In this document: piece after piece, positions 2,865-22,000 of the stretch | Layout of the letters: each line of letters begins with the position of its first letter | Numbering within the stretch: position 1 is the stretch's first letter | Origin: an uncultured Nitrospirales bacterium | GTDB taxonomy: Bacteria; Nitrospirota; Nitrospiria; Nitrospirales; Nitrospiraceae | Direction: 5' to 3' | Length of the DNA: 24,000 bases | Assembly (NCBI GenBank): GCA_964373355.1 | Contig: CAYJUM010000025.1 | Location: 7,366 to 31,365 of the forward strand | Notes under the pieces: generated by a model | The model's database searches: none | The model's input: only the letters and a program-made list of their open reading frames with translations | Told to the model about the DNA's origin: nothing | Program-made: the position numbers and the translations under genes

Positions 2865-2870
2865 CTACCA

Positions 2871-3010: not shown

Positions 3011-3017
3011 TGACCAG

Positions 3018-5803: not shown

Positions 5804-5807
5804 ACGA

Positions 5808-5891
5808 GGTGATCGGTGATGGGTGATGGGTGATGAGCGGGTGATGAGTGATGGGTGCTCAAGTCACTGATCACCGATCACCCATCACTGT
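5808..5891. repeat. Heptamer array and inverted repeat (locus B): (GGTGATG)n facing (TCACYNA)n
   Basis: Plus strand reads ggtgatc ggtgatg ggtgatg ggtgatg (5808-5835), agcg, then ggtgatg agtgatg ggtgctc (5840-5860). The opposing arm is tcactga tcaccga tcaccca tcactgt (5864-5891). Positions 5808-5820 pair perfectly with 5870-5882, and 5848-5857 can pair with 5879-5888. The element fills the phoB-phoR intercistronic gap and overlaps the last codons and stop of phoB. Confidence 0.9.
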
Positions 5892-6567
5892 CCTTGAGCT
5901 TGTAGCCGAGTGATTTGACCGAGACGATGGCGTCGTCGAGCACCGGCATTTTCTGCTTGAGGCGGCGGACGTGGACGTCCACGGTGCGGGTGGTGCCGTA
6001 GTAGTCGTAGCCCCAGACGGCATTGAGCAGCTGATCCCGGGTCAGCACCCGTCCGGGGTTTCGCAGCAGATGCTCGAGCAGGCCGAACTCCTTGGTGGTG
6101 AGCGAGACCTCCTGGCCGTCCATCTTCACCTCGTGCCGCGAGCGGTCCAGGACCAGGGATTTATACACGTAGCGCGCCGAGTCTTCGTCCGTCCGGTCCA
6201 CGCGCCGGAAGAGCGCCTTGACGCGCGCGACCAGGGCCTTGGGGCTGAAGGGCTTCGTGATGTAATCGTCGGCGCCGAGCTCCAGGCCAATGACCGTGTC
6301 CGACTCCTCGGCTTTGGCGGTGAGCATGATGATGGGAATCATCGCGGTCTGCCGGTCCGCGCGGATGCGCTTGCAGACCTCCAGGCCGTCCATCTCGGCG
6401 AGCATCAGATCGAGGATGATCAGGTCGGGATGCTCGGCCTTGACCTGCGTGAGCGCCTCGAGCCCCGTCAGCGCCGTGGCGGTGCGGTATCCTTCCTTCT
6501 CCAGATAGAGCTTCAGGAGCTGGAGGATGTCTTTTTCGTCCTCGACGATCAGGATTTTCTTGCTCAT
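5878..6567 (-). CDS. phoB: OmpR/PhoB-family response regulator
   Basis: Receiver motifs are IVEDEKD, ILDLMLAEMDG (phospho-Asp context) and ITKPF. The winged-helix C-terminus reads LTTKEFGLLEHLLRNPGRVLTRDQLLNAVWG...RTVDVHVRRLKQK. It lies immediately upstream of the kinase on the same strand. Confidence 0.85.
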   Translation of the reverse strand: MSKKILIVEDEKDILQLLKLYLEKEGYRTATALTGLEALTQVKAEHPDLIILDLMLAEMDGLEVCKRIRADRQTAMIPIIMLTAKAEESDTVIGLELGADDYITKPFSPKALVARVKALFRRVDRTDEDSARYVYKSLVLDRSRHEVKMDGQEVSLTTKEFGLLEHLLRNPGRVLTRDQLLNAVWGYDYYGTTRTVDVHVRRLKQKMPVLDDAIVSVKSLGYKLKDSDG

Positions 6568-6764: not shown

Positions 6765-7721
6765 ATGAAAATCTACCTTGCGAGTCCCCGCGGATTCTGC
6801 GCCGGCGTGGACCGCGCCATCGACATCGTGGAGCTGTCGCTGAAGATCTACGGCGCGCCCATCTACGTGCGCCACGAGATCGTGCACAGCCGCCACGTGG
6901 TGAACTCCCTCCGCGAGAAGGGCGCCATCTTCGTGGAGGAGCTCGATCAGGTGCCGGATGGCTCGATCGTGATCTTCAGCGCGCACGGCGTGGCGAAGTC
7001 GGTGTGGGAAGACGCCGGCCGCCGCGGGCTGAAGGTCATCGACGCGACCTGCCCGCTCGTCATCAAGGTGCACAACGAGGTCAACCGGGACCACACGCAC
7101 GGCTACGAGCTGATCCTGATCGGGCACGCGGGGCACCCCGAGGTCATCGGGACGCTGGGGCAGATCCCCGACAAGTTCCATCTGGTCTCCTCAGTGGCCG
7201 ACGTCGAACGGCTGCAGGTCGAAAACCCCGACCACCTGTCCTACGTGACCCAGACCACCCTGAGCGTCGATGAATGCCGGGACATCGTCGAAGCCCTGAA
7301 CCGCCGATTTCCAGGCATCAAAGGCCCGCACCAGGAAGACATCTGCTACGCCACGCAGAATCGGCAGAACGCCGTCAAGGAGTTGGCGAAGCTCGTGGAC
7401 GTGATCCTGGTCATCGGCTCGCCGAACAGCTCGAACTCGAACCGCCTGCGGGAGCTGGCCGAGTACTGCGGCATTTCCTCCTATCTGATCGATTCCTCCG
7501 CGGACATCAACCCGCAATGGATCGCCAGCGCCAACGCGGTGGGCATCTCGGCCGGCGCCTCTGCGCCGGAAGTGCTGGTCACCGAGGTAGTGGACTATCT
7601 CAAGCGCACCAGCCCCACCGGCGTCGACGCCGTCGAAGAGCTGACGGTGATCGAGGAGGACGTGGAATTCCTGCTCCCCAAGGAGCTCGTGAATCCGCTC
7701 CCCTCGGCGCGCCTCTCCTAG
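6765..7721 (+). CDS. ispH: 4-hydroxy-3-methylbut-2-enyl diphosphate reductase (IspH/LytB)
   Basis: N-terminus [19 protein letters not shown] carries the first cluster Cys. [10 protein letters not shown] (second Cys) and ICYATQNRQ (third Cys) are present, and the length of about 318 aa fits. Confidence 0.95.
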
Positions 7722-7821: not shown

Positions 7822-7877
7822 GTTCCCCATATCTTGTGGCCTGTCGTCCTCCATGCCCTCCATCCTGTATTTGTACT

Positions 7878-7906
7878 TTGATTTTTGCCATTTGCTGTGT
7901 TACAAC
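7878..7906 (+). promoter_or_regulatory. Candidate promoter for smc in a locally AT-rich patch
   Basis: TTGATT (7878-7883), a 17-nt spacer, then TGtTACAAC (extended -10, 7898-7906), about 60 nt upstream of the smc start. Motif match only. Confidence 0.3.
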
Positions 7907-7967
7907 CGCGCAGCCGGCATTCCTGCGTAGGGGGCGGTGTCCAGGCCGTGAACCTATCCATGAGGGG

Positions 7968-10900
7968 ATGATGTACCTCAAGTCGCTCGAGCTCACGGGG
8001 TTCAAGTCGTTCGTCCAGGCCCGGATCGACTTCCCGGCCGGCATCACCGCCGTGGTCGGTCCCAATGGCACGGGCAAGACCAACGTGGTGGACGCCATCC
8101 TCTGGGTGCTGGGCGAACAGAGCACGAAGACGCTGCGGAGCGACCGGATGGAGGACGTGATCTTCAACGGCACCGAGACCCAAAAGCCGCTGGGGATGGC
8201 GGAGGTCTCCCTGATCATGAGCGGGCTCTCCGAGCGGAACTTCGAGGGTGTGACGCTGCCGCACGGGCTGGGCGACTTTCAGGAAGTCATGATCACCCGG
8301 CGGCTGTTCCGGAACGGCGACAGCGAGTACCTCATCAATAAGACCCTCTGCCGCTTGAAGGACATCCGCAGCCTGTTTCTCGACACCCGGGCGGGGAGCA
8401 AGGGCCACACGATCATCGAGCAGGGGCGGATCGACCAGATCTTGAACGCCTCGCCACAGGATCGTCGCGAGCTGATCGAGGAGACCGCCGGCATCGTGCG
8501 TTACAAGAAGCAGAAGGCCGAGGCCCTCCGGAAGCTCGAAGCCACCCAGCAGAACCTGCTGCGCGTCCGGGACATCATCGCGGAAGTCCGCCGCCAGTTG
8601 AACTCGCTCGAGCGCCAGGCCCGGCAGGCCCGGAGCTACCAGACCCTGCAGGGTGAAGCGAGGCTGCTGGAGCTTCGCTTGCTGGTCCGTGAGTACCAAG
8701 GGTTGCTGGCCGCGCAGGAAACCGAGGAGGCCGAGCTCGCCGGGCTGGAATCGGTGGAGGCCGGGCAGCTCGCCGAGCAGGCGCGCCTGACCCGGGACGT
8801 CGAGGCCGTGAAGCTGGGCCTCACCACCTGCGATCAGACGATGAGCCGACTGCGCGAGGAGCTCGGCGGCGTCGAGCAGCGCCAGGGGCAGGCGGTGACC
8901 GCCACCGAAGTGGAACGGGAGCGTCTGAAGCTCTACGAGCAGCAGCGCGGCCAGGCCCGCGAGGATCTGCAGCGCCTCAAGGCGGACGCCGAGCAGGCGA
9001 CGGTCACGATCGCGGAGGCCGAAACCGCGCTCGTCAAGGCCGACGCCATGATCAGGGAGCAGGGCAAGACGGTCTCGGCGCTCGAGCAGGAGGCGGTGCG
9101 CCTCGCGACCGGACGGGCCGAGGCCCTCGAGGAGCTCGAGCGGGCCCGTCGCAGGATCATGGACCTGACGGTGGAGGCGGCCGGCGCCGAGAACGCCGTG
9201 ACGAGCCTCGATGCGCGCCGGCAGGAGGCGGCGCGGCGGGCCGAGCGGCTGGCGAGCGAGCGGGGTGAGCTCGAGACCCAGCGCGCGGCGGTGTCGGGCC
9301 GCCTGCAAGACCTCCTGCGCCACCGGGACGCCGGGCGGGCCCGCCTGCAAGACCTGCAAGCCTCCCGGGAGAGCCGGGCGCAGGAGTGCCGGGATGTGGA
9401 AGAGGAGCTGCAGGAGCTCGGCGGCCGGCTCGGCGGGCGGCAGCAGGAGCTGGCCGGCGTCCAGTCGCGTGCCAGGGCCCTGCAGGGCATGCTGCGCGAA
9501 GAGATGGGGTACGGCCGGGAAGGGGACGAACACGCCAGATCCCTGCGCGAGGCGTGCGCCGGCATCCGCGCGGCCGTGGCCGAGGGGCTGGAGGTGCCGC
9601 CGCGGCTGGTCCCGGCGGTGGAAGCGGTCCTGGGGGAACGGCTCCGTGCCTGGATCGTGAGTCATCCGAAGGACGGGCGCCAGGCCGTCGGATTCCTCGC
9701 GGAGCGCGGCCTGGGCCGCGGCGCATTCGTGCCGCAAAAGCCCCGCATCGGCACGGCCGGCAAGCAGGCGCCGGGCTGGTGGGCCGCCCTCCGGCACGAA
9801 GCGGGCGTCCTCGGCAGGGTGATCGAGCTGGTGACGGTGTCGAAGGAATGGCGGGACGCATTCGTGTGCCTGCTCGCCGACGTGGTGGTGGTCGAGAGCC
9901 TGGATGCCGCGCTGCGGATCTGGGAGAGCGGCAACTGGACCCGCGGCGCGGGCCCGATGCTCGTCACGCTCGACGGCGTCACGATCGATCCGGCCGGCGT
10001 CATGACCGGCGGCAAGACGGGCGCCTCCGGCGGTCTGCTGCAGCGCCGAGAGGAAAGCCGCGAGCTGGAGGCGAAGGAGCGCGAGCTGGCGCAGGCGGTC
10101 GAGACGACGCGGCGTCTCATCGAGCAGGCGTCGGCCCGCCAGGAATCGCTGCGCCAGCAGCTCGAAGCCCTGGAGGCGGACATCCGTGCGGCGGAGATGC
10201 AGGAGATCGGGCTCGCCAAGGATACCGAAGGGCTCACGCAACGACTCGAGGAACTGGGCCGCGGGGTCGAGGTCATCGACTCCGAGGAGACCAACGAGCA
10301 GGACGTCCGCCGCGGATGCGACACGGAGATCGCCGCGGCGCAGGAGCGCCTGGCGCAGACGCGTGCTGCGCAGGACCGGGAAGAGCAGGCGCTGCGCGCC
10401 CTGGCCACGGCCGTGGCGGCCAGGGAGCAGGAGGGCCACGCGCTGCAGGAGCGGCTCGGCGCGGCCCGGCTGGCGCTGACCACGCTGAGCGAGCGGCGGG
10501 AACGCCATGCCACCGACCTCACCCGTCTGCGAAGCGAGCGAGAGGAGCGCGCCGGCGCGATTCAGTCGTTGGAGCGTCAGATCACCGCGCTGGAGTCGCA
10601 GACCCGGCGCAGTTACGCGGAACGGGACCGCCACGAGGCGCTCTTCAAGGAGCTCGAGCAGCAGGCGGCGCGCCTCAAGGCCGACCTGCAGTTGGCGCAG
10701 GAGACACAGACCCGAGGGATCGAGGAGCTGAAAGGGCTGGAGCACCGGCTGGGGACGGTGCGTGAGGCGCTGGCCTCTGGCCGCGAGACGAGGACCGCCG
10801 TGGCGGTCCGCCTGGCCCAGCTCAAGACCCGGAAGGCGGCGGTCGAGGAGACGCTCGGCGCCACCTATCAATTGTCCATCGAGTCGGCGCTCGAGGAGGT

Positions 10901-11636
10901 CTCCACGCCCCAGGCCTCGAAAGAAGGCGAGGAGCCCCCGGCCGATCCCACCGTGCTCTGGAAGGAGCAACTCCAGAAGGTCCGGGAGCGGCTCCATCGG
11001 CTGGGCCCCATCAATCTCGCCGCGATCGAAGAGCACCGGGAGCTGGAGGAACGCTACCGGTTTCTCACGAGCCAGGATACGGACCTCTCCTCCTCCATCA
11101 ACTCCTTGAAGGAGATCATCCACCGGATCAACAAGACGACCGAAGAGATGTTCGTGCAGACCTTCGAGGAACTGCGGGCGAAATTCAGCGAGATGTTCGT
11201 GCGGTTCTTCCGCGGCGGGCGGGCGGAGCTCATCCTCACGCACGAAGAGGAGTCTCCGGAGCTGCAGAATGGTTCGCGTCCGGATCCGGGCGTGGACATC
11301 GTGGTCCAGCCGCCCGGGAAACGGCTCAAGAATATCTCCATGCTGTCGGGCGGCGAGAAGACCCTGACGGCCATGGCCCTGCTGTTCGCGAGCTTCCTGA
11401 TCCGGCCGACGCCGTTCTGCATCCTGGATGAGATCGACGCGCCGCTGGATGAGGAAAACATCGGGCGGTTCACGCACGTGCTGCGGGAGATGGCGCAGCA
11501 GTCGCAGTTCATCGTGATCACGCACAACAAGCGCACGATGGAGGTCGTGGACTCCTTGTTCGGCGTGACCATGGAGGAGCCCGGCATCTCCAAGCTCATT
11601 TCGGTGCGCCTCACCGATCTGCAACCGGTTTTGTGA
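7968..11636 (+). CDS. smc: Chromosome partition/condensation protein SMC
   Basis: N-terminal head MMYLKSLELTGFKSF with Walker A GPNGTGKTNVVDAI. Long Glu/Arg/Leu/Ala-rich coiled-coil arms flank a central hinge. The C-terminal head carries signature LSGGEKTLTAMALLFA and Walker B FCILDEIDAPLD. I place the start at ATG 7968 or 7971, after GAGGGG (7962-7967). The track start at 7836 adds an implausible Cys-rich leader. Confidence 0.93.
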   Translation: MMYLKSLELTGFKSFVQARIDFPAGITAVVGPNGTGKTNVVDAILWVLGEQSTKTLRSDRMEDVIFNGTETQKPLGMAEVSLIMSGLSERNFEGVTLPHGLGDFQEVMITRRLFRNGDSEYLINKTLCRLKDIRSLFLDTRAGSKGHTIIEQGRIDQILNASPQDRRELIEETAGIVRYKKQKAEALRKLEATQQNLLRVRDIIAEVRRQLNSLERQARQARSYQTLQGEARLLELRLLVREYQGLLAAQETEEAELAGLESVEAGQLAEQARLTRDVEAVKLGLTTCDQTMSRLREELGGVEQRQGQAVTATEVERERLKLYEQQRGQAREDLQRLKADAEQATVTIAEAETALVKADAMIREQGKTVSALEQEAVRLATGRAEALEELERARRRIMDLTVEAAGAENAVTSLDARRQEAARRAERLASERGELETQRAAVSGRLQDLLRHRDAGRARLQDLQASRESRAQECRDVEEELQELGGRLGGRQQELAGVQSRARALQGMLREEMGYGREGDEHARSLREACAGIRAAVAEGLEVPPRLVPAVEAVLGERLRAWIVSHPKDGRQAVGFLAERGLGRGAFVPQKPRIGTAGKQAPGWWAALRHEAGVLGRVIELVTVSKEWRDAFVCLLADVVVVESLDAALRIWESGNWTRGAGPMLVTLDGVTIDPAGVMTGGKTGASGGLLQRREESRELEAKERELAQAVETTRRLIEQASARQESLRQQLEALEADIRAAEMQEIGLAKDTEGLTQRLEELGRGVEVIDSEETNEQDVRRGCDTEIAAAQERLAQTRAAQDREEQALRALATAVAAREQEGHALQERLGAARLALTTLSERRERHATDLTRLRSEREERAGAIQSLERQITALESQTRRSYAERDRHEALFKELEQQAARLKADLQLAQETQTRGIEELKGLEHRLGTVREALASGRETRTAVAVRLAQLKTRKAAVEETLGATYQLSIESALEEVSTPQASKEGEEPPADPTVLWKEQLQKVRERLHRLGPINLAAIEEHRELEERYRFLTSQDTDLSSSINSLKEIIHRINKTTEEMFVQTFEELRAKFSEMFVRFFRGGRAELILTHEEESPELQNGSRPDPGVDIVVQPPGKRLKNISMLSGGEKTLTAMALLFASFLIRPTPFCILDEIDAPLDEENIGRFTHVLREMAQQSQFIVITHNKRTMEVVDSLFGVTMEEPGISKLISVRLTDLQPVL

Positions 11637-11639
11637 CCG

Positions 11640-11668
11640 CATCACCCATCACCCTTCACGCATCACGC
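11640..11668 (+). repeat. Heptamer tract (locus D): atcaccc atcaccc ttcacgc atcacgc
   Basis: It starts 4 nt after the smc stop. CATCACCCATCACC (11640-11653) is identical to the reverse complement of 5815-5828 in locus B. CTTCACGC is shared with locus C. Confidence 0.8.
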
Positions 11669-11690: not shown

Positions 11691-11720
11691 TTGACACTCC
11701 GCAAATCGGTTTGCTATAAG
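11691..11720 (+). promoter_or_regulatory. Candidate promoter for shc (extended -10 type)
   Basis: Perfect TTGACA (11691-11696), then TGcTATAAG (11712-11720), giving an 18-nt spacer to the -10 hexamer. About 100 nt upstream of the shc start. Confidence 0.45.
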
Positions 11721-11817: not shown

Positions 11818-13980
11818 ATGAAACTCCTGAAGATTCTGATCACCCGACTGTCAGGCGGACTGTTTGCCTCGGTCTCCGATCGCCTGCGGTCAGGGGCGGA
11901 CCGCCACGCGTCGCCCACGCTGCGGCTCGTCTCGCACAACACCCTGGCCGGCGCGGCGCCGGAGATGGTGCGCCGGACCGGCTCGGCCGTCGGCCAGTCG
12001 GAAGCGGTGGATGACGCCATCCGGCGCAGCCAGCACTGGCTGCTGTCCCGCCAGGACCCCGAAGGGTTCTGGGTCGCCGAGCTGGAGGCCGACAGCACGC
12101 TGACGTCCGAATACCTGATGCTGCGGCGGTTCCTGGACCGGGTGGACCCGGAACGCGAGCGGAAGGCCGTCCACTACCTCCGGTACACGCAGCTTCCCGA
12201 CGGCGGCTGGCCGATCTATGCCGGCGGTCCCTCGGAGATCAGCGCGTCGGTCAAGGCGTACTTCGCCCTGAAGCTGGCCGGCGTCTCCGCGGACGAGCCG
12301 TTCATGACGCGGGCCAAGGAGTGCATCCTGGCCAAGGGGGGCGTCGTGGCGGCGAATGTCTTCACGAAGATCACCCTGACCCTGTTCGACCAGTATGACT
12401 GGCGGGGCATCCCGAGCATGCCCGCCGAGATCATGCTGCTGCCGACGCGCTTCTACTTCAGCCTCTCTGCCATCTCCTACTGGTCCCGCACGGTGCTGAT
12501 CCCGCTCCTGATCGTCTTCGCCCATCGGCCGGTGTGCCGGATTCCTGCGGCGCAGGGGATCGACGAGCTCTATCTCACGCCGCGCGAGCGGATCCGCTAC
12601 CGGAAGGAGCCGCCGTTTAACAAGGATGCCCGGTTGCTGACGTGGCGGAATCTCTTCATCACGCTGGACCTGTGCCTCAAACTCTACGACCGCATGCCGG
12701 TCCGCGCCCTGCGGAAGAGGGCGCTGCAGAAGGCGGCCGCCTGGATGCTCGAGCACATGAACGGCACAGGGGGGCTCGGGGCGATCTATCCGGCCATGGC
12801 CAACTCGATCTTCGCGCTGCGCAGCCTCGGGTATCCGGCCGACCATCCGTTGGTTACGAAGGCCCTCGGCGAGATCGAAGCCTTGGAGGTGTACAGCGCC
12901 GTCAAGGACGGCCACCGTGAGGTGGAGACCCTGCATCTCCAGCCCTGCTTCTCTCCCGTGTGGGACACTTCGCTCCTCATGAACGCGCTCGTCGAAGCCG
13001 GTCTCCGTCCCGATCATTCGGCGCTGGTGAAGGCGGCCGCCTGGCTCCGGGCCCGCCAGACGACGACGCCGGGAGACTGGAAAATGTCCGCCCCTTCGGC
13101 GGAGCCGGGAGGCTGGGCGTTCCAGTTCGAGAACGAGTGGTACCCCGATGTGGACGATACGGCCGTGGTGTTGATGGCCTTGGCCAAGCTCCGCCATCCG
13201 CCGAGCGCCCCGGCGCTCCAGCGGGGCCATCGCTGGGTCCTGGCGATGCAGGGCTCGGACGGGGGCTGGGGGTCCTACGACAAGGACAACAACCATCTGG
13301 TCTTCAACCTCATCCCCTTCGCGGACCACCGCGCCTTGCTGGACCCCAGCACCGCAGACTTGACCGGCCGCTGCCTGGAGTACCTCGGGACCGTCGGGTA
13401 CGACCGGTCGCATCCCGCGGCGGGACCGGCCGTGGACTTTCTCCGCCGGGAGCAGGAGGCGGACGGGAGCTGGTACGGGCGGTGGGGTGTCAATTACCTC
13501 TACGGGACCTGGTCGGTGCTGACCGGCTTGCGCGCGATCGGGGAGGACATGTCCGCGCCGTACGTCCGGAAGGCCATCGAATGGCTCGAATCCCGGCAGA
13601 ACCCCGACGGCGGCTGGGGAGAATCCTGTCTGAGTTATGCGGACCCGGCGATGGCCGGCCGGGGAGACAGCACGCCGTCCCAGACCGCATGGGCGTTGCT
13701 GGCGCTGCTCTCGGGGGGCGTGTCCGATTCGATCAGCGTGGTGCGCGGCGTGCATTTTCTGCTTCGGCACCAGCGGGAAGACGGCTCCTGGACGGAAGAG
13801 CGGCATACCGGCACCGGCTTCCCGCGCGTCTTTTATCTGCGCTACCACTGGTACTGCCAATACTTTCCGCTCTGGGCTCTCGCCATGTACCGGAACGTGC
13901 GCGCTCGCGGGCAGAGCAAGGCCGATGAGCTCCGTCACATCGCCCGTGACACGGGGTGGTTCCGGTCCATCGTCGGATAG
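11818..13980 (+). CDS. shc: Squalene-hopene cyclase
   Basis: The catalytic DxDDTA motif is present (YPDVDDTAVVLMAL). Repeated QW-type motifs occur (RQDPEGFW, QLPDGGWPIY, MQGSDGGWGSY, EQEADGSWYGRWG, RQNPDGGWGES, QREDGSWTE). C-terminus reads GFPRVFYLRYHWYCQYFPLWAL. The start is uncertain: ATG 11818 gives about 45 extra N-terminal residues with coding-like codon bias, and ATG 11965 is the alternative. Confidence 0.93.
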   Translation: MKLLKILITRLSGGLFASVSDRLRSGADRHASPTLRLVSHNTLAGAAPEMVRRTGSAVGQSEAVDDAIRRSQHWLLSRQDPEGFWVAELEADSTLTSEYLMLRRFLDRVDPERERKAVHYLRYTQLPDGGWPIYAGGPSEISASVKAYFALKLAGVSADEPFMTRAKECILAKGGVVAANVFTKITLTLFDQYDWRGIPSMPAEIMLLPTRFYFSLSAISYWSRTVLIPLLIVFAHRPVCRIPAAQGIDELYLTPRERIRYRKEPPFNKDARLLTWRNLFITLDLCLKLYDRMPVRALRKRALQKAAAWMLEHMNGTGGLGAIYPAMANSIFALRSLGYPADHPLVTKALGEIEALEVYSAVKDGHREVETLHLQPCFSPVWDTSLLMNALVEAGLRPDHSALVKAAAWLRARQTTTPGDWKMSAPSAEPGGWAFQFENEWYPDVDDTAVVLMALAKLRHPPSAPALQRGHRWVLAMQGSDGGWGSYDKDNNHLVFNLIPFADHRALLDPSTADLTGRCLEYLGTVGYDRSHPAAGPAVDFLRREQEADGSWYGRWGVNYLYGTWSVLTGLRAIGEDMSAPYVRKAIEWLESRQNPDGGWGESCLSYADPAMAGRGDSTPSQTAWALLALLSGGVSDSISVVRGVHFLLRHQREDGSWTEERHTGTGFPRVFYLRYHWYCQYFPLWALAMYRNVRARGQSKADELRHIARDTGWFRSIVG

Positions 13981-13990
13981 CCTCCGGCCT

Positions 13991-14039
13991 CGTGATCGGT
14001 GATACGTCTTCAATCACCAGTCACGAATCACCAATCACT
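13991..14039. repeat. Heptamer hairpin (locus E) between shc and the hpnG-like gene
   Basis: Left arm is cgtgatc ggtgata (13991-14004). Right arm is aatcacc agtcacg aatcacc aatcact (14012-14039). Positions 13991-14003 pair with 14013-14025: 11 Watson-Crick pairs, one T-G wobble and one mismatch, with a 9-nt loop. GTGATCGGTGAT (13992-14003) is identical to 5809-5820 in locus B. Confidence 0.85.
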
Positions 14040-14042
14040 GCC

Positions 14043-14813
14043 ATGCACGTGGGGATCTTTGTCGCGACGAGATGGGAGGTCAGGGCGATCCGGCAGGCCC
14101 TCACCGTCGAACGGCCCGGCCCCGCCGGCGGGGGCGCGGTCGTGACCGGCCACCGCGGAGCCTGCCGGGTGTCCGTCTTTCAGACCGGCGTGGGAGAGAC
14201 CCGCACGGCTGTGGTCTGCCGCGACGTGCTGGGCAGTCAGCGACTCGAGGCGGCGGTTGCGTCGGGGTTCGCCTGCGCCCTGGGGCCCTACGCGATCGGC
14301 ACCATCTTGATCGGGACGGATGTGATCAGGCAGGATCAGCGGACCGGCCCCCCGGCTGAGGCTCTGCCCTGCACCGAGGAGCTGAGGGGACTGGCGCTCG
14401 AGGCGGCGGTGGCGGCCGGTGTGTCGGCCCGCGCCGGACGGATCGTCACCGTCCCGCACGTCCTCTGGGAAGCGGCGGACAAACGGCGGGTGGCCGCAGC
14501 CTCCGGCGCGATCGGAGCGGACATGGAAAGCGCGGCGGTGGGCGCGGCGGCGCGCGAGCGGCACATCCCCTTCGTGGTGATCCGGGGAGTCTCCGATCTC
14601 ATGGATGAAGACCTCCCGTTCGATTTCAACGAGTACCTCCAGGGAGGCTGGCGCCGGGCGGCGGCGGCCTGCTTGGCCAGGCCCTCGCGTCTGGCCGGCC
14701 TCAATCGGCTGCGGCGGCAAGCGGCCGTGGCCTCGGAGCGCATGACCAGGTTCTACGGCGCATTTCTCGATGCCCTGGAGCCGGCCGCCGAAGGCTCCCC
14801 GAGGGCCTCGTGA
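14043..14813 (+). CDS. hpnG: Hopanoid-associated nucleoside phosphorylase family protein (HpnG-like, PNP/UDP-1 fold)
   Basis: MTA/SAH-nucleosidase-like motifs are present: VGIFVATRWE, FQTGVGETRTA, GADMESAAVGAAA and FVVIRGVSDLMDE. The position directly after shc is typical of hpnG. I place the start at ATG 14043. The track start at 13956 would overlap shc and translate the heptamer repeat. Confidence 0.65.
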   Translation: MHVGIFVATRWEVRAIRQALTVERPGPAGGGAVVTGHRGACRVSVFQTGVGETRTAVVCRDVLGSQRLEAAVASGFACALGPYAIGTILIGTDVIRQDQRTGPPAEALPCTEELRGLALEAAVAAGVSARAGRIVTVPHVLWEAADKRRVAAASGAIGADMESAAVGAAARERHIPFVVIRGVSDLMDEDLPFDFNEYLQGGWRRAAAACLARPSRLAGLNRLRRQAAVASERMTRFYGAFLDALEPAAEGSPRAS

Positions 14814-15589
14814 TGGGTCTACAGGACAGCGTCAGGAAGATCGGCCGCCCCATGACCCTCGTCCTCGAGGACATGGGCCGGATGCTGCTGTTTCTCCTCT
14901 CCACCTTCGGCTGGCTCCTGCGGCCGCCCTTCCGGCCGTTCCAGATCATCAAACAGATGCATTTCATCGGGTTCAAATCGACCTTCGTGGTGGTGCTGAC
15001 CGCCGTCTTCACGGGCATGGTGCTCGGCCTGCAGGGGTACTACACGCTGCGGAAGTTCGGGTCGGAGGGGTTGCTCGGGTCGGCCGTGGCGCTGAGCATC
15101 ATCCGGGAGCTCGGGCCGGTGCTCGCGTCCTTGATGGTCACCGCCCGGGCCGGGTCGGCGATGACGGCGGAGCTCGGCATCATGCGGATCACCGAGCAGA
15201 TCGACGCGCTCGACACCATGGCCATCAATCCCCTCCAGTACCTGGTCGCGCCGAAGGTCGTGGCCGGCCTGCTCGGCGTGCCGTTCCTCGTGGCGATCTT
15301 CGACGTGGTGGGGATCTACGGCGGGTACATCGTGGGGGTCGACCTGCTCGGGGGCAATCCCGGCGCGTACTGGAGCTCAATGGAGTCGTCCGTCGAATGG
15401 AAGGACGTCTACGGCGGCATTCTCAAATCCATCAGTTTCGGATTGCTTATCGCCTGGGTCTGCAGTTACAAGGGCTATTACACGCGGCCGAGCGCCGAGG
15501 GACTGGGCACGGCGACGACCGAGGCCGTGGTGCTGGCGTCCGTGCTGATCCTGGTGTGGGATTATTTCCTGACGTCCGTCCTCCTCTAA
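14813..15589 (+). CDS. mlaE: MlaE-type ABC transporter permease
   Basis: Characteristic MlaE/YrbE blocks: QMHFIGFKSTFVVVLTAVFTGMVLGLQ, LGSAVALSIIRELGPVLASLMVTARAGSAMTAELGIMRITEQIDAL and INPLQYLVAPK. ATG 14813 overlaps the hpnG stop TGA (14811-14813) by 1 nt; GTG 14810 is an alternative start. Confidence 0.9.
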   Translation: MGLQDSVRKIGRPMTLVLEDMGRMLLFLLSTFGWLLRPPFRPFQIIKQMHFIGFKSTFVVVLTAVFTGMVLGLQGYYTLRKFGSEGLLGSAVALSIIRELGPVLASLMVTARAGSAMTAELGIMRITEQIDALDTMAINPLQYLVAPKVVAGLLGVPFLVAIFDVVGIYGGYIVGVDLLGGNPGAYWSSMESSVEWKDVYGGILKSISFGLLIAWVCSYKGYYTRPSAEGLGTATTEAVVLASVLILVWDYFLTSVLL

Positions 15590-15593
15590 AACG

Positions 15594-15682
15594 GTGAGGA
15601 GTAAAGGGTGAAGAGTCAGGGGTTAAGGTGGGAAAGAATCATGATTCCTACCCTTCACCCTTTACTCCTCACTCCTTACTGG
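15594..15682. repeat. Heptamer hairpin (locus F) between mlaE and mlaF; perfect 20-bp stem
   Basis: Left arm is gtgagga gtaaagg gtgaaga gtcaggg gttaagg (15594-15628). Right arm is ctaccct tcaccct ttactcc tcactcc ttactgg (15648-15682). Positions 15594-15613 pair perfectly with 15653-15672. The loop holds a perfect 12-nt palindrome GAATCATGATTC (15636-15647). Confidence 0.92.
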
Positions 15683-15687
15683 CACCG

Positions 15688-16428
15688 ATGATACGGCTCG
15701 AGGGCGTCGAAAAGACACTGGGCGGGCAGCCGGTCCTGCGCGGGGTCAACCTGACCGTGCCGGTTGGGAAGCTCACCACCATCATCGGGAGAAGCGGCGG
15801 TGGCAAGTGCGTCCTGTTGAAACACATGATCGGCCTCCTGCAGCCGGACCGGGGCAAAGTCTGGGTGGGGGACGTGGACATCTCCCACCTCCGGTCCAAG
15901 GAGCTCAACGAGGTCCGCAAGCGTTTCGCGATGCTCTTCCAGGGGGCGGCGCTCTTCGATTCCTTGACGGTGTTCGACAATGTCGCCTTCCCGCTGCGCG
16001 AGAAACTGCACCTGCCGGAGGACGAGGTGCGGACCCGCGTGGAAGAAAAGCTTGACCAGGTGGGGCTGGCCGACATGGGCCATAAATTTCCGGCGGAGCT
16101 GAGCGGGGGCATGAAAAAGCGCGCCGGCCTCGCCCGGGCGCTGGTGATGGAGCCGGAGATCATCCTGTTCGATGAACCGACCACCGGGCTGGACCCTCTG
16201 ATGGCCAAGACCATCCATGATCTCATCGTCGCGATGCACCGGGCCTTCGGGTTCACGGCCGTCATGGTGAGCCATGAAGTCCCGGAGATCTTCGCGATCT
16301 CGGATTGGGTGGCGATGCTCCACGAGGGGACCATCATCTCGATGGCCCCGTCGGCGGAGTTCCAGCGGGTCACGAATCCGGTGGTCCACGAGTTCATCAC
16401 GGTGGGCGGCACGGCCCTCAACCCTTAA
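15688..16428 (+). CDS. mlaF: MlaF-type ABC transporter ATP-binding protein
   Basis: Walker A GRSGGGKC, Q-loop LFQGAALF, signature LSGGMKKRAGLARAL, Walker B IILFDEPTTGLDP and H-loop VSHE are present. I place the start at ATG 15688 (MIRLEGVEK...). The track start at 15628 would translate the repeat. Confidence 0.9.
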   Translation: MIRLEGVEKTLGGQPVLRGVNLTVPVGKLTTIIGRSGGGKCVLLKHMIGLLQPDRGKVWVGDVDISHLRSKELNEVRKRFAMLFQGAALFDSLTVFDNVAFPLREKLHLPEDEVRTRVEEKLDQVGLADMGHKFPAELSGGMKKRAGLARALVMEPEIILFDEPTTGLDPLMAKTIHDLIVAMHRAFGFTAVMVSHEVPEIFAISDWVAMLHEGTIISMAPSAEFQRVTNPVVHEFITVGGTALNP

Positions 16429-16442
16429 CGCACGGAGCGGAT

Positions 16443-16886
16443 ATGGAACGAGCGAAGCTGGAGTTTGTGGTCGGGATCTTCGTGCTGGTGGGATTGGCCG
16501 CCCTCGCCTACCTCTCGATCAAGCTCGGCAAGCTGGAGGTGATCGGTGGACGGATGTACGAGCTCGATGCGGTCTTCGATTCGGTCTCGGGGCTCAAGCC
16601 GGGGGCCACGGTGGAGGTGGCCGGCGTCGAGGTGGGGCGCGTGAAGGGCATCCGGCTGAACGACGACCGGGCGACGTTGAGGCTGGCGATCCGCGACGGC
16701 GTGACCCTCTACACGGATGCCATCGCCTCCATCAAGACCCGTGGCATCATCGGCGAAAAGTATGTGTCGCTCTCGCCCGGCGGCGGCGGCGAGCCGTTGA
16801 AACAGGGGAGCAAGATCCGCGACACCGAGTCCGGCGTCGATCTCGAGGAGTTGGTCAGCCAATTCATCCATGGGAATGTAAAATAA
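16443..16886 (+). CDS. mlaD: MlaD-type MCE-domain protein (single MCE domain, short)
   Basis: N-terminal anchor KLEFVVGIFVLVGLAALAYLSI. The MCE core reads YELDAVFDSVSGLKPGATVEVAGVEVGRVKGIRL...ATLRLAI...YTDAIASIKTRGIIGEKYVSLSPG. I place the start at ATG 16443, after GGAG. Confidence 0.85.
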   Translation: MERAKLEFVVGIFVLVGLAALAYLSIKLGKLEVIGGRMYELDAVFDSVSGLKPGATVEVAGVEVGRVKGIRLNDDRATLRLAIRDGVTLYTDAIASIKTRGIIGEKYVSLSPGGGGEPLKQGSKIRDTESGVDLEELVSQFIHGNVK

Positions 16887-16909
16887 TACCGTCCGGAGGT
16901 AGAGGTCAC

Positions 16910-17524
16910 ATGAACACCACAATTCGGGTCGGCATCGGCATCATTGTCGTGATGTTGTCGTATGTCGGGGTCCAGGCGGCCGCCGCCGGGCAGGCGACCG
17001 ACCAATTGAAAGGGACCATCGACGAGGTCGTCCGCATCCTGACCGACAAGGAGATGAAGAAGCCCGAGCGCACGGATGAACGCCGCCGGATCCTGGAGAA
17101 AGTGATCGGCGATCGGTTCAGCTACGATGAAATGTCGAGACGGGCTCTGGCGGCCCAGTGGAACAAGCTGAACGACGACCAGCGGAAGGAGTTTGTCTCG
17201 CTCTTCCAGCGGCACCTCGCCAATGCCTACACCGGGAAGATCGAAGGGTACAAGGGCGAGCAGATCCGGTTCATGAACGAGCGGTTGGAAGACAACACCT
17301 ATGCCGAGGTCCGGTCCAAGCTCGTCACCGAGAAGACCGAGATTCCCTTGGACTACCGGCTCATCAACAAGTCCGGCGAGTGGCGCGTGTACGACGTCAT
17401 CGTCGACGGCGTCAGTCTGGTGAACAACTATCGCGGCCAGTTCACGCGGATCATCCGCTCCTCCTCCTATGAGGATCTCGTCGAGCGGCTGCGGAAAAAG
17501 TCCGACGACCTGAAGGCTCCCTGA
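16910..17524 (+). CDS. mlaC: MlaC / Ttg2D-family periplasmic lipid-binding protein
   Basis: Signal peptide MNTTIRVGIGIIVVMLSYVGVQAAAA. Family-typical blocks: FSYDEMSRRALAAQWNKLNDDQRKEFVSLFQRHLANAYTGKI and WRVYDVIVDGVSLVNNYRGQF. SD GGAGGTAGAGG (16895-16905) precedes ATG 16910. Confidence 0.88.
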   Translation: MNTTIRVGIGIIVVMLSYVGVQAAAAGQATDQLKGTIDEVVRILTDKEMKKPERTDERRRILEKVIGDRFSYDEMSRRALAAQWNKLNDDQRKEFVSLFQRHLANAYTGKIEGYKGEQIRFMNERLEDNTYAEVRSKLVTEKTEIPLDYRLINKSGEWRVYDVIVDGVSLVNNYRGQFTRIIRSSSYEDLVERLRKKSDDLKAP

Positions 17525-17541
17525 CCCGTCACCGGGGGGAG

Positions 17542-18762
17542 ATGCAGCGACCACTCCGCCGCGTCGCGACCCTGCTGCTCTGGGCCGTGCTCCCCCTCGC
17601 GGCTCTGACTGCCGCGCCGTCTCTGGCGGCGGCGGCGGCGGCGGAGACCTCCTACTTTCCGATCCCCACCGTGTCGACCACCCGCAACGACGGGAACGAC
17701 GCGGGCTTTATCGTGCCGATCCTCGTCACCGAGCCGAGCGGGGACCTGAAGTACGTCATGGCCCCCATGTTCGTCGTGAACTCGATCGTCGGCGCGCGCG
17801 GTTCCTTCAACCTCTTCCGCTATGAGCCCGGCGGACGCGAGATGCGGTTCATCGGGTCGTTCACCGAGCGGATCGAGCGCAAGCTCGTGTTCAGCTACAC
17901 CGATCCCGCGTTCAGGAACGGCCAGTACGCGCTGAGCGTCGGCGGGTCCTTTTTCAAGAACGCGACCGCCCGGTTCTTCGGTATCAGCCAGGATACGCCG
18001 CTCAGCAACGAGTCGAACTACACCGCGCGCGAGGTGCGGGCCTACTGGAAGCTCGGGCTCCATCTGAACGAAGTCACGCAGGTGGCCGTCGGCGAGCGGT
18101 TTCGAGAGGTACGGGTGCAGCCGGGCGGCGCGACCAGCCTGCCGTACTCACTGGACCTTTTTCCGACCGTGGACGGCATGCAGGGCGCCTCCATCCTCGG
18201 CCACCGCCTCACGTTCCACTATGACACGCGGGACAATCTGGTCTCCCCGACGGCCGGCTCGCAAGTCACGGTCTATGCCGAGGTGAACCAGAACCTGAAA
18301 AACGGCGACAACCCGGTGTATACGCGCTACGAGCTGGAATTCCGGAAGATCTTTCCCAGCGAGTCGAAGCGGGCCATCCTCGTGGTGCGGGGCGATCTGC
18401 AGACCACCTTCGGCACCGAGGTGCCGTTCTACGAACGTAGCTCGCTGGGCGGGCAGAACAACTTGCGCGGCTACGGCGTGGACCGATTCATCGACAAGCA
18501 CCTCATCGCCATCAACGTCGAGAACCGGCTGCACGTGATGCGGACGAGGGTGATGGGGGTCGCGGCGGAGTTTGAAGTCGCGCCGTTCGTGGATATGGGC
18601 AAGGTGTTCAGTTCGTTCAGCAAGAAACCGTTCACCGGCTACGAAGTGACGCCGGGCGTCGGGTTTCGGGGCATGGTCCGCCCGAACGTCGTCGGCCGGG
18701 TGGACTACGGGTACAGCAAGGAGGGCGGGGCGGTTTTCGCTGGCCTGGATTATCCGTTTTAG
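17542..18762 (+). CDS. Omp85-family (bacterial surface antigen / D15) outer-membrane beta-barrel with no recognisable POTRA domains
   Basis: Signal peptide ends ...LAAAAAAE. Barrel motifs are DTRDNLVSPTAGSQV and ERSSLGGQNNLRGYG, and alternating amphipathic strands run through the sequence. The C-terminus is aromatic (GLDYPF). At 406 aa there is only about 20 residues between the signal peptide and the first strand-like segment. Confidence 0.75.
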   Translation: MQRPLRRVATLLLWAVLPLAALTAAPSLAAAAAAETSYFPIPTVSTTRNDGNDAGFIVPILVTEPSGDLKYVMAPMFVVNSIVGARGSFNLFRYEPGGREMRFIGSFTERIERKLVFSYTDPAFRNGQYALSVGGSFFKNATARFFGISQDTPLSNESNYTAREVRAYWKLGLHLNEVTQVAVGERFREVRVQPGGATSLPYSLDLFPTVDGMQGASILGHRLTFHYDTRDNLVSPTAGSQVTVYAEVNQNLKNGDNPVYTRYELEFRKIFPSESKRAILVVRGDLQTTFGTEVPFYERSSLGGQNNLRGYGVDRFIDKHLIAINVENRLHVMRTRVMGVAAEFEVAPFVDMGKVFSSFSKKPFTGYEVTPGVGFRGMVRPNVVGRVDYGYSKEGGAVFAGLDYPF

Positions 18763-18797: not shown

Positions 18798-18827
18798 TTG
18801 ACAGTAAAAGAGGTTCTGTGTGAGACT
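18798..18827 (+). promoter_or_regulatory. Candidate promoter for dxs-ispG
   Basis: Perfect TTGACA (18798-18803), then TGtGAGACT (18819-18827). The spacing and TGn layout match the shc promoter candidate, but the -10 hexamer is weak. A small hairpin, GAGACT (18822-18827) with AGTCTC (18842-18847), would sit at the 5' end of the leader. Confidence 0.3.
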
Positions 18828-18888
18828 AGCCGGGCTTTTGCAGTCTCGAACCTCGGGGCAACCCTGGAGTTCGGGAGGAGAGGGAACG

Positions 18889-20784
18889 ATGTCCATACTC
18901 AAGACACTCCATAGCCCTGCAGATCTGAAGAAATTGTCTCCTGCGGACTTTCCGGCCCTCTGCCAGGAGATTCGGGAGCAGATCCTCGAGGTGGTGTCGA
19001 ACGTCGGCGGCCATCTGGCTTCCAACCTCGGCGTGGTGGAGCTGACCGTGGCCCTCCACTATCTGCTCGACACGCCGACGGACAAGATCGTCTGGGACAC
19101 GAGCAATCAGGCGTATGCCCACAAACTGCTCACCGGGCGGCGGGAGCAGTTTCATACCCTGCGGCAGTACGGGGGCCTGAGCGGGTTCTGCAAGCGCGAG
19201 GAAAGCCCCTATGACACGTTCAACGCCGGGCATGCGGGCACCGGCATTTCCGCCGCGCTGGGGATGGTGGAGGCGCGCGAGCAGCAGGGGCGCCACCACA
19301 AAGTCGTGTGCGTGGTAGGCGACGGCGCCATGACCGCCGGCATGACCCTGGAGGCCCTCCATCATGCGGGCGGACTGCACAAGGACTTTCTGGTGCTGCT
19401 GAACGACAACCAGATGTCCATCTCACGGAACGTGGGCGCCATCTCGGCATACCTCAATCGCACGTTTACCGGGGAGTTCTACACGAGAATCAAGGAGGAG
19501 ACCGGGCTGTTCCTCAAGGCCCTGCCCCACATCGGGCAGCCGGTCGGCAAATTCGCCCGCAGGGCCGAGGAGCTGGCCAAAGGGTTGATCCTGCCCGGCC
19601 TGCTGTTCGAGGAGCTGGGGTTCCGGTACGTCGGTCCCATCGACGGCCATAACTTCGAGCATCTCCTGCCGACCCTGGAGAACGTCCTCCGCCTGAAAGG
19701 CCCGACGCTGCTGCACGTGATCACCAAAAAGGGCCTGGGCTATGAACCGGCGATGAAGAACCCCGTGTGGTTCCACGCGTGCCCCGCGTTCGTGAAGGAG
19801 ACCGGCGAGCCGGCCAAGAAGCCGGCGCGGCCCTCGTACACGAGCGTGGCCGTGAACACCCTCGTGAAGCTGGCACGGCAGGACGAGCGGATCGTCGCGA
19901 TCACCGCGGCCATGTGCGAAGGGACCGGTCTCACGGCCTTCGAGAAGGAGTTCCCGCGCCGGCTGTACGACGTCGGCATCGCCGAGCAGCATGCCGTGAC
20001 GTTTGCCGCGGGGCTGGCGGCGCAGGGGATGCGCCCGGTCATCGCGATGTACTCGACCTTTCTCCAGCGGGCGTACGACCAGGTCGTGCACGATGTCGCC
20101 ACCCAGAACCTGCCCGTGAGTTTTCTGATCGATCGGGGAGGGCTCGTGGCGGAGGACGGGACGACCCACCACGGCGCGTTTGACCTCGCGTACCTGCGGC
20201 ATGTCCCGAACATGACGGTGATGGCCCCCAAGGATGAGAACGAGTTGCAGCACATGGTGGCCACCTGCGTCCGGCACGACGGTCCCGCAGCGGTCCGCTA
20301 TCCCCGCGGCCTGAGCCTGGGGGTGCCGATGGATGCGGACCCGGCCACGCTTCCCATGGGACAGGGCGAGCTGCTGCGGGCGGGGACCGATGTGGCGATC
20401 ATCGCGATCGGCGTGACCGTGTGGCAGGCGGTGCGGGCGGCGGCGCGTCTGGCGCAGGAGGGTATCTCGGCGGCGGTCGTGAATGCCCGGTTCGTGAAAC
20501 CCCTCGACGCCACGCTCATCGCGGACGTCGCGCGGCAGGCCCGTTGCGTGCTGACCGTGGAGGAGGGTGCGAAGATGGGCGGCTTCGGGTCGGCGGTGCT
20601 GGAGGCGCTGGCCGAGCAGGGGCTGTCCCTCCCGACCGCGATGCTCGGCCTGCCGGACTGGTATATTGAGCAGGGGCCCCAGGATCTGCTGCGCGAGAAA
20701 TACGGCCTCACGGCGGATAACATCTACGAGCGCGCCAAGGCGCTTCTGACCGGGGCGGTGTCCCGGGCCGAGGTGCCCCGGTGA
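18889..20784 (+). CDS. dxs: 1-deoxy-D-xylulose-5-phosphate synthase
   Basis: Motifs present: [19 protein letters not shown], the ThDP motif [20 protein letters not shown]...[38 protein letters not shown] and [17 protein letters not shown] place the start at ATG 18889, after GGGAGGAGAGGGA. Confidence 0.93.
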
Positions 20785-20800
20785 CGGCGTAACGGACCGC

Positions 20801-22000
20801 ATGCATATCGCCAGAAAAAAGACCCGCCAGATTAACGTCGGCCGGGTGAAGATCGGCGGCGACGCGCCGATCTCGGTCCAGTCCATGACCACGACCGACA
20901 CCCGCGACGTCAAGGCGACGGTCGAGCAGATCCACCGCCTGGAGCAGGCCGGCTGCGAATTGATCCGCGTGGCCGTGCCGGACATGGAGGCGGCCGCGGC
21001 GCTGCCGAAGATCAAGGCGCAGATGACCGCCCCGCTCATCGCCGACATCCATTTCGATCACCGGCTGGCCTTGAAGGCGGCGGAGGTCGTGGATTGCGTC
21101 CGCATCAATCCCGGCAATATCGGGGCCTGGTGGAAGACGGCGGAGGTGCTCAAGGCCGTCACCGACCGAGGCATCCCGCTCCGCGTGGGAGTCAACGGGG
21201 GCTCATTGGAGCGCCACCTTCTGGACAAGTACGGGTATCCCACGGCGGAGGCGCTGGCGGAGTCGGCGCTGAACGCGGTCCATGCCCTGGAGGACGTCGG
21301 TTTCACCAACATGAAGGTGTCGCTCAAGGCGTCGGATGTCCACCTGGCCGTGGACGCCTACTGGCTGTTTTCGCTGCAATCGAACTATCCGCTCCACATC
21401 GGGATCACCGAGGCGGGCACGGTGCTGACGGGCGCCGTCAAGTCCGCGATCGGACTCGGCTGGCTGCTGTCACAGGGGATCGGGGACACCTTGCGCGTCT
21501 CGCTCGCGGCCGATCCCGTGGAAGAGGTCAAGGTCGGGTTCGAGATCTTGAAGTCGCTGGAGCTCCGTCACCGGGGGATCAACGTCATCGCCTGTCCGAC
21601 CTGCGGCCGCGTGGAGATCGACGTGGTGCGGATGGCCAATGAGCTGGAGCAGCGGCTCGGCCATATCAAAGTGCCGCTCAACGTCTCGGTGCTGGGCTGC
21701 GTCGTGAACGGCATCGGCGAGGGCAAGGAGGCGGACATCGGCATCGCCGGTGGCGAGGGAGTCGGCATCCTGTTCAAGAAGGGGAAGTTGCTGCGGAAGG
21801 TCCCCGCCGAAGAGCTGATGGACACCCTGATCCAGGAAGTGGAGCTCTTGGCCAAGGAGAAAGAGGCTGAGGAAGGCGCGGCCGGGGCCGGCGCTGAGGA
21901 TCCCGATGGCTCCGGGTCAGAAACGCCGCTCTCCGCCGCCTCGTCCCTCGCCCCGTCGCGCGCCCCGCGCGAGGTCCCCGTCCTCCCCCCACGCCGCTGA
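20801..22000 (+). CDS. ispG: 4-hydroxy-3-methylbut-2-en-1-yl diphosphate synthase (IspG/GcpE)
   Basis: Motifs present: [50 protein letters not shown], and the cluster Cys contexts VIACPTCGR and [17 protein letters not shown]. It carries a roughly 49-aa low-complexity C-terminal tail. Confidence 0.93.

Follow-up and report, generated by a model that had tools for sequence, protein, structure and literature searches.

The path of hopanoids to the outer membrane is known up to the inner-membrane exporter HpnN, and the periplasmic and outer-membrane steps are hypotheses. A locus from an uncultured Nitrospirales bacterium of the family Nitrospiraceae raises the question of whether an Mla-type lipid transporter could serve these steps. 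In a 24,000-nt stretch of its DNA (contig CAYJUM010000025.1, positions 7,366 to 31,365; hereafter the window, with a guanine plus cytosine content of about 65%), genes for squalene-hopene cyclase (shc) and an HpnG-like protein are followed by mlaE, mlaF, mlaD, mlaC and a gene for an outer-membrane barrel. The initial annotation had proposed that the set forms an Mla-type route for hopanoids or another isoprenoid lipid. On balance, we favour reading it as a hopanoid-trafficking module whose constant core would be the HpnM-like carrier encoded by mlaC together with the barrel, a protein of the POTRA-less ("noNterm") Omp85 type, with the MlaFED complex as an accessory engine. This reading is built on the gene identities, the operon-like layout of the genes, their conservation and their recurrent linkage to hopanoid genes, all of which come from the analysis described here.

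All seven open reading frames (ORFs) lie on the forward strand at the positions first assigned to them and belong to the families first named (Table 1). The gaps between successive genes, 62, -1, 98, 14, 23 and 17 nt, were reproduced exactly, and the overlapping hpnG stop and mlaE start codons read TGATG at 14811-14815. Genes called independently in a strain that is near-identical (L165, GCA_947085775.1) have matching boundaries, including the 1-nt hpnG/mlaE overlap. Family models describe the products to different degrees. The HpnG model TIGR03468 is the top NCBIfam match of the HpnG-like protein, with a score of 86 bits that lies below the cut-off of 187. Similarly, the MlaF model PRK11831 gives 218 bits against a cut-off of 441, and the mlaF product is best described as a generic ATP-binding cassette (ABC) ATPase. 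The mlaD product, 147 amino acids long, has a single MCE domain and an N-terminal hydrophobic membrane helix. No ORF for an MlaA (VacJ) lipoprotein or an MlaB STAS protein was found in the operon or elsewhere in the window, which also lacks an HpnN equivalog.

Isoprenoid or hopanoid genes stand on both flanks of the Mla genes and barrel: shc and hpnG upstream, dxs and ispG downstream and, in relatives, hpnH. Since dxs and ispG follow directly and ispH lies upstream, the Mla-plus-barrel block is embedded in an isoprenoid/hopanoid locus rather than appended to one.

Table 1. Positions of genes and sequence elements in the window, with the family matches or signals that identify them
Feature	Position	Strand	Identification
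ispH (lytB), isoprenoid precursor gene	6765-7721	+	PF02401, 322 bits; separated from shc by smc
smc	7836-11636		between ispH and shc
Sigma-70-like promoter motif	11691-11720	+	TTGACA-18-TATAAG upstream of shc; consensus match and phylogenetic footprint, not a mapped transcription start
shc, squalene-hopene cyclase	11818-13980	+	TIGR01507, 782 bits (cut-off 431); both Pfam SQHop_cyclase domains
hpnG-like nucleoside phosphorylase/hydrolase (PNP_UDP_1)	14043-14813	+	PF01048, 86 bits
mlaE, permease	14813-15589	+	PF02405, 280 bits; TIGR00056, 268 bits (above cut-off 212)
Long near-perfect hairpin (REP-like element)	15593-15673	+	in the 98-nt mlaE-mlaF spacer; RNA fold -50.9 kcal/mol, z = -6.6; no U-run after it
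mlaF, ABC ATPase	15688-16428	+	PF00005; MlaF PRK11831 best NCBIfam match
mlaD	16443-16886	+	TIGR04430, 142 bits (above cut-off 135); PF02470
mlaC-family periplasmic lipid carrier, HpnM-like	16910-17524	+	PF05494, 164 bits
POTRA-less (noNterm) Omp85 barrel	17542-18762	+	PF01103, 75 bits
Weak promoter-like motif	18798-18827	+	TTGACA-18-GAGACT upstream of dxs; 9/12 match, picked up by neither promoter scan
dxs, 1-deoxy-D-xylulose 5-phosphate synthase	18870-20784	+	TIGR00204, 833 bits; GGAGGAG ribosome-binding site before the putative 18870 start
ispG (gcpE)	20801-22000	+	PRK00366, 496 bits

Linkage of the block to hopanoid genes

To follow the block in other genomes, a scan with an alignment of seven barrel sequences, limited to one genome per species, was run. 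It identified 298 relatives, of which 80 loci were kept; with two loci from Candidatus Nitrospira bockiana and the window itself these make up a set of 83 barrel loci. A metagenome scan with an MlaC alignment contributed 80 further loci. The barrel protein of the window is 100% identical to proteins of metagenome-assembled genomes (MAGs) at NCBI and 72% identical to its N. bockiana homologue. The N. bockiana chromosome carries the genes in the order ispH-smc-shc-hpnG-mlaE-F-D-C-barrel-dxs-ispG, as in the window.

The synteny between the block and shc/hpnG, which the initial annotation had singled out for checking, was borne out: the order shc-hpnG-mlaE-F-D-mlaC-barrel was found in every Nitrospirales locus with enough flanking sequence, but with mlaEFD deleted in some. 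The full set of seven is present in 22 of these loci, and the block never occurs in them unless shc is there too. The arrangement persists even where barrel identity is just 42-53%, and dxs-ispG usually come next after the barrel. The genes are also closely spaced, median gaps between aligned stretches ranging from 50 to 135 nt in the 22 loci with all seven genes. The barrel gene follows mlaC directly in 37 of 37 Nitrospirales loci in which both were detected (median gap about 51 nt between aligned stretches).

Outside the Nitrospirales, the linkage recurs in other arrangements. In Methylomirabilota/Rokubacteria, one strand carries shc-mlaE-mlaF-mlaD-OEP-mlaC, OEP being a TolC-like outer-membrane efflux protein gene, and the other strand, running divergently, a CruF-like gene of the carotenoid-synthesis family (carS), hpnH, an hpnG-like gene, the barrel gene and a squalene/phytoene synthase gene. 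The hpnG-like gene, which adjoins shc in the window, thus adjoins hpnH in this phylum. Wherever the flanks are long enough, Nitrospirales and Methylomirabilota loci have an mlaC homologue among hopanoid genes. In a Nitrospirota MAG whose barrel groups with those of Desulfobacterota (L048), the barrel gene lies between hpnI (330 bits; cut-off 310) and idi/hpnK, with hpnJ, shc, hpnA, hpnH and a CruF-like gene nearby. In L054, hpnJ (754 bits) follows the barrel gene and hpnG and shc lie further on; in L019, the barrel gene is divergent from shc-hpnG. As the chance that a given gene falls within 10 kb of shc is well below 1% per genome, linkage in multiple arrangements is the strongest single argument for a tie between the barrel and hopanoids. 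The tie is not universal: the idea that the barrel always stands beside hopanoid genes was discarded, the neighbourhood in Geobacter hydrogenophilus having neither a hopanoid nor an mla gene. Geobacter is a producer of hopanoids.

A TolC-like efflux gene (PF02321) between mlaD and mlaC, as in Methylomirabilota (L009:1138-2502), is also present in several metagenomic mla operons unlinked to shc. This Mla architecture, in which the operon has a TolC-type outer-membrane gene but none for MlaA, is also seen in L121, L123, L131, L137 and L139.

Carrier, barrel and inner-membrane engines

The MlaC homologue of the window has a signal peptide and no lipobox cysteine, and its matches in the PDB are all MlaC/Ttg2D-type proteins. 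Its top family is HpnM: it scores 98-101 bits on the HpnM model TIGR03481 and 40-42 bits on that of Escherichia coli-type MlaC, a difference of about 58 bits. The same pattern is seen in the MlaC homologues of five shc clusters (HpnM 92-105 bits, MlaC 28-48 bits), none of the five reaching the HpnM cut-off. As controls, four solved MlaC/Ttg2D proteins were scored as fragments and gave 48-80 bits on HpnM and 48-72 bits on MlaC. At the level of sequence models, the lean of the carrier towards HpnM is real. Elsewhere, a stand-alone MlaC homologue, 58% identical to that of the window, lies among pentapeptide-repeat, MgtC, CBS and Lon-like genes (L093:10001-10612); it may represent a second carrier paralogue in a related organism.

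The barrel protein has a signal peptide, an LRGYG motif in L6, in keeping with the (V/I/L)RG(Y/F) pattern conserved there in Omp85 barrels, and a C-terminal YPF. An N-terminal beta segment, residues 36-63, is strongly conserved across phyla. In an AlphaFold2 model of moderate confidence (pLDDT 68.6) the protein is all-beta from residue 36, with 16 long strands and no POTRA domain, and Foldseek matches the model to BamA and TamA barrels (E about 1e-10). Profile searches of the barrel yielded no POTRA hit, a score of 50 bits on TIGR03303 (cut-off 297) and no recognisable catalytic domain, PF01103 being the sole match. The protein is thus a member of the Omp85 superfamily with noNterm, that is POTRA-less, architecture. 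It scores 136 bits on NF047779, under the cut-off of 200. Its family is small, with 127 representative clusters at E < 1e-30 among 1.84 billion, and in a rough neighbour-joining tree it falls into three clades: Nitrospirales, Methylomirabilota, and Desulfobacterota together with Geobacterales.

The least constant part of the block is mlaEFD. These genes are absent from the cluster in six loci (L013, L027, L028, L030, L044 and L053), which represent at least four separate Nitrospirales branches, and mlaC and the barrel gene are intact in all six. Contigs of MAGs whose cluster lacks mlaEFD include JAJDBS010000165.1, JAJDBQ010000171.1, JACZQN010000017.1 and CAYXED010000001.1. Two of the six retain a 3' remnant of mlaD in the gap between hpnG and mlaC (L044:9062-9226, E = 5e-5; L027:9122-9196, E = 3e-4), which points to an in-place deletion that took mlaE, mlaF and the greater part of mlaD.

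Relatives of the window also encode an MMPL/HAE3 transporter of the resistance-nodulation-division (RND) type that matches HpnN weakly (TIGR03480, 104-117 bits; cut-off 752). Within the cluster it occupies three different positions: the interval between shc and mlaC (L028), the site after ispG (L013) and the interval between the barrel region and dxs (L070). Between the L028 and L013 copies the identity is 63%. Two complete chromosomes with the full block encode orthologues at sites distant from the cluster, with 67-68% identity to the L013 copy; hence, ABC and RND engines coexist in at least some genomes. This finding disposes of the view, implied by the initial annotation, that the block is an alternative to the RND exporter: complete Nitrospirales genomes with the block encode an HpnN-like MMPL transporter as well.

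A candidate route and its alternatives

An Mla-type route for hopanoids had been thought uncharacterised when the locus was first annotated. Such routes have in fact been proposed already. The model TIGR03481 describes an MlaC-like protein long named HpnM from its genome context, and a preprint (10.1101/2025.07.29.667474; 2025-26) puts forward HpnN, HpnM and a new MlaA-like protein, HpnS, as an Mla-like hopanoid route in Proteobacteria. Support for the latter consists entirely of microsynteny and AlphaFold 3 predictions. The main text of the preprint makes no mention of MlaE, MlaD, Omp85, barrels or Nitrospira; its searchable supplements contain no MlaE, MlaD, Omp85 or barrel terms and name Nitrospira only in strain and genome tables, and its genome set includes one Nitrospirales genome. 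Literature searches for Nitrospira together with Mla genes returned nothing. According to the literature, Nitrospira possesses shc and hpnH and produces hopanoids, and nitrite oxidisers are listed there among the sources of bacteriohopanepolyols. The window resembles the proteobacterial route in having an MlaC-family carrier among hopanoid genes, with HpnM as its best model, and in belonging to a lineage with an HpnN-like MMPL transporter, sometimes within the cluster. It differs in that its operon has a full MlaFED set, that the barrel stands for the MlaA-like HpnS and that carrier and RND transporter score well under the HpnM and HpnN cut-offs. What is new here relative to the proposed route, as far as sequences can tell, is the presence of an ABC engine in the operon and of a barrel that would replace the MlaA-like lipoprotein.

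We envisage that hopanoids, made at the inner membrane, would be extracted from it by an inner-membrane engine. In the genome of the window this would be the MlaFED ABC complex; the lineage at large probably also uses an HpnN-like MMPL/RND transporter. The extracted lipid would pass to the soluble HpnM-like MlaC carrier, which would deliver it to the outer membrane, or collect it from there, at the POTRA-less Omp85 barrel, in the place held by the MlaA/HpnS lipoprotein in Proteobacteria. MlaFED would be accessory or interchangeable, and the carrier and barrel pair would be the constant hopanoid-linked core. In this scheme the cargo, the direction of transport and the physical contacts between the parts are what we infer. 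The barrel is, from its sequence and gene context, a strong candidate for the missing outer-membrane step of hopanoid trafficking. A more specific version, to which we give only tentative credence, is that the barrel is a dedicated acceptor or insertase for hopanoids in the outer membrane, fed by the MlaC-type carrier and releasing the lipid via its lateral seam, with MlaFED and the HpnN-like MMPL transporter interchangeable as engines. If so, a noNterm Omp85 protein would be assigned a function for the first time, and no earlier beta-barrel partner of an MlaC-type shuttle is known to have been described.

The initial proposal thus survives in part. The link between the block and hopanoid genes is supported by the Nitrospirales synteny, the rearranged Methylomirabilota cluster, the presence of the barrel in hpn clusters and the HpnM-leaning MlaC homologue. 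On the other side, mlaEFD is inconstant and a general Mla role remains a serious alternative. Under the favoured reading, the locus offers a concrete outer-membrane candidate that recurs across phyla, as well as a natural comparison, since the cluster can combine the same carrier-barrel pair with an ABC engine, an RND engine or no engine at all. It would also provide a first functional lead for the noNterm Omp85 proteins, a widespread class, and bears on the membrane biology of nitrite oxidisers.

Several observations weigh against a hopanoid-trafficking module. The MlaD product passes the cut-off of the housekeeping MlaD model, and the MlaC homologue lies under the HpnM cut-off of 160.1. The closest relatives of MlaE (55-66% identity) and MlaC (40-48%) outside the Nitrospirales are encoded in mlaEFD-(OEP)-mlaC operons whose flanks, up to 10 kb, are free of shc (L123, L131, L137, L139, L150, L160 and L164). 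The Mla system of the window could be the only one in its genome. In approximately 36 of the 83 barrel loci, most of them from Geobacterales, neither hopanoid nor mla genes adjoin the barrel gene. Conservation does not extend to the TGATG overlap: hpnG and mlaE are separated by a 34-nt gap in N. bockiana. Finally, smc is conserved beside shc across Nitrospiraceae as well; since this unrelated gene is also kept there, synteny inside one lineage proves little by itself.

Several of these points would fit an ordinary Mla system for glycerophospholipids, co-transcribed with the hopanoid genes as both serve lipid homeostasis of the outer membrane, in which the barrel is a local replacement for MlaA and hopanoids are not the cargo. 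The locus would then be merely an ordinary Mla operon in an unusual place. The scores of MlaD on the housekeeping equivalog model and of MlaE on TIGR00056, the nearest outside relatives in operons without shc and the example set by smc all speak for this explanation. A second Mla system did not come to light either, although no search for one could be made. A hopanoid-specific Mla clade uniting Nitrospirales and Methylomirabilota was considered and rejected: the MlaE protein of the window is nearer to those of unlinked metagenomic operons (55-66%) than to the Methylomirabilota copies (52-58%). With the nearest Mla relatives in unlinked operons, the shc-linked Mla systems do not form a separate hopanoid clade. 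We nonetheless hold the general Mla explanation to be the less likely one. The adjacency of shc and mla genes is found again in a second phylum with another gene order, and a canonical Mla unit would not readily account for the survival of mlaC and barrel after deletion of mlaEFD. The barrel family occurs among hpnI, hpnK, hpnJ, hpnH and hpnG in lineages without adjacent mla genes, and the MlaC homologue leans to HpnM.

The E. coli system is composed of MlaFEDB, MlaC and MlaA-OmpC/F. As in E. coli, MlaE, an MlaF-like ATPase, a single-MCE MlaD and a soluble MlaC-family carrier are encoded together. In contrast, the window locus lacks MlaB and MlaA, has an Omp85-type barrel and opens with hopanoid enzymes, and the E. 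coli MlaC model gives its carrier just 40 bits. That an Omp85 barrel can form the outer-membrane end of a lipid-transport system has a precedent in TamA-TamB, where the barrel anchors an AsmA-like lipid-transport protein, and TamA barrels are among the top structural matches of the window barrel. TamA, however, has three POTRA domains and a bridge-like partner, and is not known to work with a soluble MlaC-type carrier or an ABC transporter. A three-compartment route for polycyclic triterpenoids, encoded beside the biosynthesis genes, is formed in Methylococcus by BstA (an RND protein), BstB and BstC (PMC11713862). The cluster-borne RND transporters of relatives match BstA weakly, and a tetratricopeptide repeat (TPR) gene after the barrel gene of marine Nitrospirales has a weak match to BstC. 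These similarities are far under cut-offs, and the two routes have different proteins in the periplasm and outer membrane.

A second alternative separates the barrel from the Mla genes, which would be unrelated neighbours. The barrel would be tied to hopanoids by itself, not as a transporter, but as an enzyme or scaffold that modifies or anchors extended hopanoids, or as a protein that needs a hopanoid-rich membrane for its assembly. Its tightest partners outside the Nitrospirales are indeed side-chain enzymes (hpnG, hpnH, hpnI, hpnK and hpnJ) and not transport genes. Furthermore, noNterm Omp85 proteins have yet to be assigned a function, and no link between them and lipid genes is reported (PMC4104836, Heinz and Lithgow 2014; PMC11358297, a Leptospira study). 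The window barrel shares with them the POTRA-less architecture and an L6 motif of the RGY type, and its family is set apart by its hopanoid-cluster context; its own score lies under the NF047779 cut-off. We consider a non-transport role decidedly improbable in view of the position of the barrel gene, directly after mlaC in all 37 Nitrospirales loci with both, and of a protein with no recognisable catalytic domain. Least probable is that the system carries not hopanoids but a different isoprenoid product of the shared precursors, for example squalene or a carotenoid: the block is flanked by dxs, ispG and ispH and a CruF-like gene is present in the Methylomirabilota and L048 clusters, but the constant neighbours (shc, hpnG, hpnH, hpnI, hpnJ, hpnK and hpnA) are hopanoid-specific, several of them above curated cut-offs.

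Transcription signals and flanking genes

Promoter-like motifs had been annotated upstream of shc and after the barrel gene. The former is strong and the latter weak (Table 1). The motif upstream of shc is the only forward-strand site with at least 10 of 12 matches between 11500 and 19000, a region for which shuffled sequences gave 0.035 such sites. Of 28 related shc-carrying loci, 17 have TTGACA-18-TATAAG at a distance of about 130-160 nt before shc, with spacers of varying sequence. A promoter/terminator scan of the operon detected no terminator-like site between the genes. These data suggest that shc, the hpnG-like gene and the lipid-trafficking set form one transcription unit read from a conserved sigma-70-type promoter.

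The hairpin in the mlaE-mlaF spacer is formed by palindromic arms of about 20 nt (GGTGAGGAGTAAAGGGTGAAG / CTTCACCCTTTACTCCTCAC). A related pair of arms, likewise with no U-run, is found at 2871-3010 between the co-directional PhoU-like and Pit genes. A role as a terminator was rejected on both grounds, the lack of a U-run and the presence of a similar element between two other co-directional genes. The hairpin is better viewed as a repetitive extragenic palindrome (REP)-like element that might affect mRNA stability. A smaller hairpin of GTGAT/ATCAC motifs (-20.2 kcal/mol, z = -3.7) lies in the shc-hpnG spacer at 13990-14040, and CAC-rich repeats at 11636-11668, upstream of the shc promoter, resemble those of this hairpin.

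On the upstream side, the order ispH-smc-shc is also found in L001, L013 and L165. On the downstream side, the L165 gene call for dxs (631 amino acids) implies a start a few codons further in than the putative one at 18870. The dxs-like gene at 18870-20784 is highly divergent among Nitrospirales (26-50% identity in L012, L016, L027 and others); for comparison, identities are 71-90% for the adjoining ispG and 60-75% for shc. Two types of dxs, or displacement by a non-orthologous gene, may account for this divergence.

The region behind the barrel gene varies. About 18 loci of marine-type Nitrospirales (for example, L027:11157-11915) encode a TPR protein of about 250 amino acids after the barrel, a gene that the window does not have; its match to the sterol-transport protein BstC is weak, at 30 bits (cut-off 350). 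In many loci of the Nitrospira lineage, L013 (11116-12153) and 12 other genome loci, a conserved ORF of about 345 amino acids with no family match lies between the barrel gene and dxs; neither the window nor N. bockiana has this ORF. A second copy of shc, 45% identical to that of the window, is present in one Nitrospirales MAG about 1.8 kb downstream of the barrel gene (L050:12968-14824). At the other end of the window, positions 2241-6567 are occupied by a seemingly unrelated phosphate-related block, comprising the PhoU-like gene, the Pit transporter gene and a convergent histidine kinase/response regulator pair.

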